From assembly GCF_054482525.1 (NCBI RefSeq), contig NZ_CM137006.1: 64,000 nucleotides of DNA, one strand, 5' to 3'. The translations under genes were made by a program, and so were the position numbers. The notes under the pieces are model-generated. The model searched no databases. It was not told the DNA's origin and saw only the letters and a program-made list of their open reading frames with translations. Numbering within the stretch: the first letter of the stretch is position 1; each line of letters starts with the position of its first letter. This document shows positions 4,026 to 4,060 of this stretch, piece by piece.

Positions 4026-4060
4026 AATTGAGAGTGCTCCTGAGTATGGGTGCTTTTTTA
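4026..4060 (-). promoter_or_regulatory. ptsG 5' leader including RBS; known SgrS sRNA base-pairing region
   Basis: mRNA-sense sequence AAAGCACCCAUACUCAGGAGCACUCUCAAUUAUG read directly upstream of the start codon; SgrS targeting is established knowledge. Confidence 0.6.

Follow-up and report, generated by a model that had tools for sequence, protein, structure and literature searches.

The silencing of ptsG mRNA by the small RNA SgrS is the textbook model of Hfq-dependent sRNA silencing, and in E. coli K-12 the interaction between the two RNAs was reportedly described by Vanderpool and Gottesman in 2004 and by Kawamoto and colleagues in 2006. The published footprint of SgrS on the ptsG leader consists of a core at A82-G89 with weak protection at G76-A78 and around nucleotides 92-95, and the key pairs in K-12 genetics are those of ptsG C85 and C87 with SgrS G178 and G176, respectively, the G residues being essential (PMC3089445). 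The complementarity of SgrS to ptsG spans nucleotides 168-187, of which nucleotides 168-181 are enough for repression (PMC7870926), and the pairing follows a 5-8-4 pattern published by Horler & Vanderpool (PMC2760817). Among the SgrS targets ptsG has the highest priority, and its efficient regulation needs the degradosome, with RNase E degrading the SgrS-bound ptsG mRNA (PMC3089445; bioRxiv 10.1101/221978). Co-translational membrane targeting of the ptsG message is also reported as needed, in work as it is cited in PMC3089445. The regulation of manX and other SgrS targets involves the same sRNA with an overlapping seed and the same dependence on Hfq (PMC3089445; bioRxiv 10.1101/221978), but their sites are located in the coding sequence or elsewhere and use other SgrS residues (G168 matters for manX). 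A second form of the sRNA, the CFT073/O157:H7-type SgrS (Horler & Vanderpool 2009, PMC2760817), is approximately 87-88% identical to K-12 SgrS with an identical base-pairing region, and has already been described as a normal homolog. With respect to other regulators, the accessible text of PMC10729762 maps no CsrA site on the ptsG leader and gives no ptsG result, though SgrS-ptsG is among the pairs tested there.

The DNA analyzed here, a stretch of 64 kb to which we refer as the window, is from E. coli, and its first 25 kb differ by approximately 1-2 mismatches from the genomes of strains PCN033, 19KM1776 and SCU-102. Its gene order is hinT-fhuE-ptsG-ycfH-holB-tmk ... rne ... flg ... pyrC ... 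mdoH, and it contains neither manX nor any of the other SgrS target genes. The window is distinct from PCN033, with a mismatch at position 11657 and an indel near 35659. The latter coincides with yceH, which in the window forms an intact ORF of 215 aa (35052-35699, minus strand) and is annotated as frameshifted in the PCN033 record; this discrepancy probably stems from a misassembly of either sequence, or else from a real strain difference. The ptsG gene, annotated under the same name in the near-identical PCN033 record, was identified from its 477-aa ORF and translation at 2592..4025 on the minus strand, with the AUG start codon at 4023..4025, and encodes the glucose-specific PTS enzyme IIBC, the product of the regulated gene. 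The protein is identical to K-12 PtsG at 476 of its 477 residues and the N-terminal membrane region is unchanged. The sole change, E387D (codon 387, window 2865-2867, minus strand), sits in the linker that joins the IIC domain to the IIB domain.

Immediately upstream of the start codon, the minus strand from 4060 to 4026 reads UAAAAAAGCACCCAUACUCAGGAGCACUCUCAAUU and is followed by the AUG at 4025-4023. The first-pass annotation, made from the sequence alone, had quoted a sequence at this place, which we found as an exact 31-mer at 4056..4026 of the minus strand; the interval given with it, 4026-4060, is this 31-mer plus 4 extra nucleotides (UAAA), and its coordinates are correct. The 5' untranslated leader transcribed from the major promoter P1 would occupy 4026..4127 (minus strand) and comprise 102 nt, compared with 103 nt in K-12. 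Its putative 5' end was placed by setting +1 so that 103 nt precede the AUG in K-12, fitted to the numbering of PMC3089445. With this setting the published landmarks match the K-12 sequence exactly, A82-G89 being AUACUCAG and G76-A78 being GCA, with cytosines at positions 85 and 87. The position relies on agreement with the published numbering because P1, the CRP-dependent promoter of ptsG, did not emerge from a consensus promoter scan. Both the minimum free energy (MFE) and the centroid folds of the leader contain a 5'-proximal hairpin, AGGGCG-CUUAGA-UGCCCU, at leader nucleotides 9-26 (4102..4119, minus strand). This hairpin, which gave a terminator-like call on the opposite strand and is moderately conserved across genera, might stabilize the ptsG mRNA.

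To compare this region with that of K-12, we aligned the ycfH-ptsG intergenic region with MG1655 and found differences at three places. One of them is in the leader, which has one A fewer in a run of adenines (A6 at 4054..4059, minus strand, versus A7 in K-12) and is otherwise the same. The two strains are identical from the G that follows the A-run to position +60 of the ptsG coding sequence. The other two are substitutions in the promoter spacer, T>C at window position 4154 and G>A at 4152, approximately 25 nt upstream of the putative P1 start. Among the 5,424 complete E. coli genomes having the region, 5,138 (95%) carry the exact 87-nt K-12 allele (A7), 242 carry the exact 86-nt allele of the window (A6), and 44 have something else. 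A6 or A7, which are alike in the pairing region, are thus present in 5,380 of these genomes (99.2%), and an A5 run was found in E. coli E69.

We then located the parts of the SgrS target site in the window. The complete predicted pairing region, which came first in an unbiased scan, covers leader nucleotides 74-94 (4034..4054, minus strand) and lies over the Shine-Dalgarno sequence, between positions -29 and -9 relative to the ptsG AUG with the AGGAG included. Its center is the 8-bp core helix formed by AUACUCAG (4040..4047, minus strand), which corresponds to K-12 A82-G89 and is predicted to pair with SgrS C174-U181; the cytosines C84 and C86 of this helix (C85 and C87 in K-12) are at window positions 4044 and 4042. 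On the upstream side, AGCACC (4049..4054, minus strand) is predicted to pair with SgrS nucleotides 183-188. This helix has 5 bp when the partner is K-12 SgrS but 6 bp when it is SgrS of the PCN033/CFT073 type, because nucleotide 188 of the latter is a U. On the downstream side, GCAC (4034..4037, minus strand) is predicted to pair with SgrS G168-U171. The Shine-Dalgarno sequence AGGAG, read at 4037..4041 (minus strand) and 11 nt upstream of the AUG, would be half buried in the duplex. The A-run lies directly 5' of the duplex and is predicted to be unpaired, except for its last A, which can pair with U188 of PCN033-type SgrS. All the bases of the published duplex (core A82-G89 and flanks G76-A78 and ~92-95) are found in the window within 4054..4034. 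This bears out the earlier statement that the region is the one known to pair with SgrS, since each base of the published duplex is present, including both cytosines, and base-level comparison with K-12 revealed no mismatch at the seed positions or elsewhere in the site. A 19-nt stretch of the site, CACCCATACTCAGGAGCAC, occurs only once in the 64-kb window even when 3 mismatches are allowed (0.01 occurrences expected).

To evaluate the pairing energy against background, we used an IntaRNA-like custom script in which all pairs of 30-nt windows are scored by their hybridization energy plus the opening energies of both RNAs, the latter obtained from local partition-function folding. The whole 227-nt SgrS was compared with the whole leader, using the K-12 (NC_000913.3, 77367-77593) and the PCN033 (L003, 24498-24724) sequences as queries. 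A whole-molecule duplex fold of both full RNAs gave meaningless values of -76 to -91 kcal/mol and was dropped. In this unrestricted comparison, both SgrS alleles gave the same best site on both leaders, formed by SgrS nucleotides 167-189 and leader nucleotides 73-95 (window 4055..4033). In the predicted duplex, SgrS nucleotides 168-188 pair with window positions 4054-4034 and the C85/C87:G178/G176 pairs are included. The scan recovered the published 5-8-4 helices (GCACC, AUACUCAG and GCAC), and a 6-8-4 pattern with PCN033 SgrS, in which U188 forms a pair with the final A of the run. Hybridization energies were -27.8 kcal/mol with K-12 SgrS and -28.4 kcal/mol with PCN033 SgrS, total energies were -17.8 to -17.9 kcal/mol, and the next-best site reached -8.9 kcal/mol or weaker. 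Totals for the A6 and A7 leaders were nearly the same (-17.82 versus -17.84, a difference of at most 0.03 kcal/mol). The site is predicted to be unpaired in both the MFE and the centroid folds of the leader, with an opening cost of 4.85 kcal/mol.

Pairing at this site is far stronger than background. When the 162-nt leader sequence was subjected to 200 dinucleotide shuffles, the best energies averaged -5.82 ± 2.08 kcal/mol with a minimum of -13.18, and none of the 200 reached -17.8 (z = -5.8). Likewise, when the regions from -100 to +60 around the starts of all 111 ORFs of at least 100 aa in the window were ranked, ptsG came first with -17.81 kcal/mol, the runner-up having -13.24 and the mean being -6.17 ± 2.62. 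In addition, the G176C/G178C changes introduced in silico in SgrS weakened the ptsG site from -17.8 to -3.6 kcal/mol, and the C84G/C86G changes in the leader (K-12 C85G/C87G) weakened it to -8.3 when introduced alone; combining both sets of changes restored the energy to -13.7. In this energy model, disruption and compensation therefore reproduce the published genetics (PMC3089445).

Two weaker complementarities emerged from the same scans. The second-best predicted SgrS site of the window, at approximately 45179-45206 on the plus strand (total -13.2 and hybrid -26.4 kcal/mol), lies approximately 70-100 nt upstream of the annotated start of lpxL, which is no known SgrS target, and is probably a chance match. 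Within the ptsG leader, nucleotides 45-53 (window 4075-4083, minus strand) are perfectly complementary over 9 nt to nucleotides 7-15 of K-12 SgrS (CCCCCUUGC / GCAAGGGGG), which belong to the sgrT ribosome-binding region, with a hybrid energy of -19.6 and a total of -8.9 kcal/mol. We dropped this second contact, which is probably also due to chance: G13A in PCN033-type SgrS breaks the match, the total energy is low, and a 9-mer match of this kind is not improbable (estimated at ~0.13).

We next examined the conservation of the site across genera. Searching with a degenerate pattern that covers the initial 12 codons of ptsG yielded at least 120 loci, each group of them in different species. Most belong to Enterobacterales, with genera such as Yersinia, Serratia, Pantoea, Erwinia, Pectobacterium, Dickeya, Klebsiella, Enterobacter and Citrobacter, and three are from Vibrio. 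Motifs were counted in the 118 leaders with enough upstream sequence and column identity was calculated from 115 distinct leaders, in both cases among the matches listed. Among these matches, ACUCAGGAG was present in 111 of the 118 leaders, UACUCAGGAG in 105, and CAGGAG in 117. In the 115 distinct leaders listed, the core was 97.8% identical to the window, the site as a whole 84%, and the remaining untranslated region 61%. The flanking GCAC elements were also conserved among the leaders listed, and the Vibrio leaders among them kept the Shine-Dalgarno sequence and nothing else of the site. Other positions varied more. Among the matches listed, the first two helices are separated by the triplet CCA in Escherichia, by AAA in the majority of Enterobacteriaceae, and by either UAU or CAU in Yersinia and Serratia, and the length of the A-run ranges from 0 to 10 in the 118 leaders listed, the As beside GCAC being fairly conserved.

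The Rfam scan at gathering scores gave no SgrS hit in the window, and the partner RNA was hence analyzed in the nearest relatives. In PCN033, sgrS (RF00534, 227.6 bits) is accompanied by sgrR and by sgrT with an intact start codon, and it abuts leuD because setA is absent. PCN033 shares the 1,401-bp sgrR-sgrS-leuD segment at 100% identity with SCU-102 and 19KM1776, the other two of the three nearest complete genomes, and also with VCSW7. Given this identity, it is reasonable to infer that the strain of the window carries the same sgrS allele and that its partner SgrS is of the CFT073/O157 type, which likewise keeps sgrT and abuts leuD. PCN033 SgrS is 87% identical to K-12 SgrS, with every difference outside the 26 nt CAUCAUGUGUGACUGAGUAUUGGUGU. 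It retains the 5-bp small hairpin, with an altered sequence (GGUGUUAAUCGCCAC), and the 8-bp G+C-rich terminator, and its tail is U6-C-U5 (TTTTTTCTTTTT) compared with U8 in K-12. The inferred system differs from that of K-12 by the U188 that gives the 6-8-4 pattern, by the tail of SgrS, and by the absence of setA.

Three other explanations of these observations were considered. That the complementarity to SgrS is a chance match might be argued from the general abundance of short complementarities, such as the 9-nt one between the 5' end of K-12 SgrS and the leader, but the distance of the ptsG site from the shuffled leaders, its first rank among the 111 start regions, and its conservation across genera refute this explanation, to which we give practically no credence. 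Alternatively, the region could be conserved solely as the ribosome-binding region of a highly expressed gene, with an SgrS complementarity that has no role of its own. In agreement with this, the core and the Shine-Dalgarno sequence share bases, and of the 118 leaders listed, all but one contain CAGGAG, those of Vibrio included. However, the UACUC located 5' of the Shine-Dalgarno sequence, which has no role in ribosome binding, is contained in the motifs found in 105 to 111 of the 118 leaders listed and is absent from the Vibrio ones, and the flanking GCAC elements are conserved as well. Because UACUC is conserved without a Shine-Dalgarno role, pairing, and not only ribosome binding, seems to shape the sequence. 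Moreover, the pairing energy is an outlier with respect to both the shuffles and the other start regions, and direct pairing was shown by compensatory mutations and footprints (PMC3089445). For K-12, published data indicate that changes in UACUC which spare the Shine-Dalgarno sequence do affect SgrS-dependent repression. We thus regard conservation for ribosome binding only as very improbable.

The third explanation concerns the partner: the ptsG site could be intact but SgrS control weakened or lost in this lineage if the divergent tail and the altered small hairpin of its SgrS bind Hfq less. The divergence of the allele and its changed tail and small hairpin fit such a scenario, and so do the reports that a U tail of at least 7 residues is optimal or needed for Hfq binding and that single substitutions in the tail (U224A/G) impair both termination and regulation (PMC7870926). 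Nevertheless, the same allele with the same architecture is present in approximately 2,150 of 5,426 complete E. coli genomes (~40%), including O157:H7, Nissle 1917, E2348/69 and IAI39, and thus looks maintained rather than decaying. The seed, the 5-bp small hairpin and the 8-bp G+C-rich terminator are all there, the closing C and a tail of approximately 7 U are also part of the Rfam consensus for SgrS, and PMC2760817 treats this type as a normal homolog. A weakening of SgrS control in this lineage consequently appears improbable to us. We consider it very likely that the canonical target of SgrS in the 5' untranslated leader of the ptsG mRNA is 4034-4054 (minus strand), and nothing in the sequence speaks against this explanation.

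With 4034-4054 as the canonical SgrS site, the window can be placed in the known circuit. Under glucose-phosphate stress, SgrR would induce SgrS from its distant locus, and Hfq-bound SgrS would pair through nucleotides 168-188 with the ptsG leader in a 5(6)-8-4 arrangement, burying the upstream half of the Shine-Dalgarno sequence. The duplex would block ribosome loading on the ptsG mRNA, which the Hfq-associated RNase E degradosome would then destroy, so that no new glucose transporter is made. RNase E, whose C-terminal scaffold serves the coupled decay of the mRNA, is encoded in the window by a full-length rne gene of 1061 aa (17526..20711, plus strand), identified from its ORF, the annotation, and the rne 5' UTR element just upstream; hfq is a core E. 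coli gene and lies outside the window. SgrS regulation of ptsG would be expected to operate in this strain. The earlier assertion that the regulatory interface is intact in the strain holds for the ptsG site; for the partner, which lies outside the window, the seed is intact in the three nearest complete genomes. Compared with SgrS:ptsG of K-12, the gene, the place of the site over the Shine-Dalgarno sequence, the 21-nt target, the 5-8-4 helices, the C85/C87:G178/G176 pairs and the predicted energy are the same, and the differences are A6 instead of A7, the substitutions at 4152 and 4154, and PtsG E387D. The SgrS site of ptsG is thus already known and unchanged here save for a one-base polymorphism in the unpaired A-run. 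An unchanged site in another E. coli strain only confirms the circuit as part of the species core, and its practical value is for annotation, as the SgrS site can be labelled on the ptsG leader of this strain.

The A-tract 5' of the duplex, which is conserved but variable in length, raises the idea that it is functional, either as a site for the distal face of Hfq or as a translation enhancer, and that its length tunes the efficiency of ptsG repression. We found no published Hfq site or function for this A-run in bioRxiv 10.1101/221978, PMC7870926, PMC7987339 and PMC8544716, and we consider the idea unlikely. The U188 of CFT073-type SgrS, which provides one extra A-U pair, could add to such tuning, and if this were true, the strength of the response to glucose-phosphate stress would vary between lineages.

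Finally, the Rfam scan detected five elements at gathering scores: the rne 5' UTR element (17165-17501, plus strand), the SraB sRNA (15136-15304, minus strand), the PyrC leader (39199-39248, plus strand), and the ES036 (48379-48421, plus strand) and ES056 (59293-59384, plus strand) sRNAs. All five are expected for this region of the E. coli chromosome.
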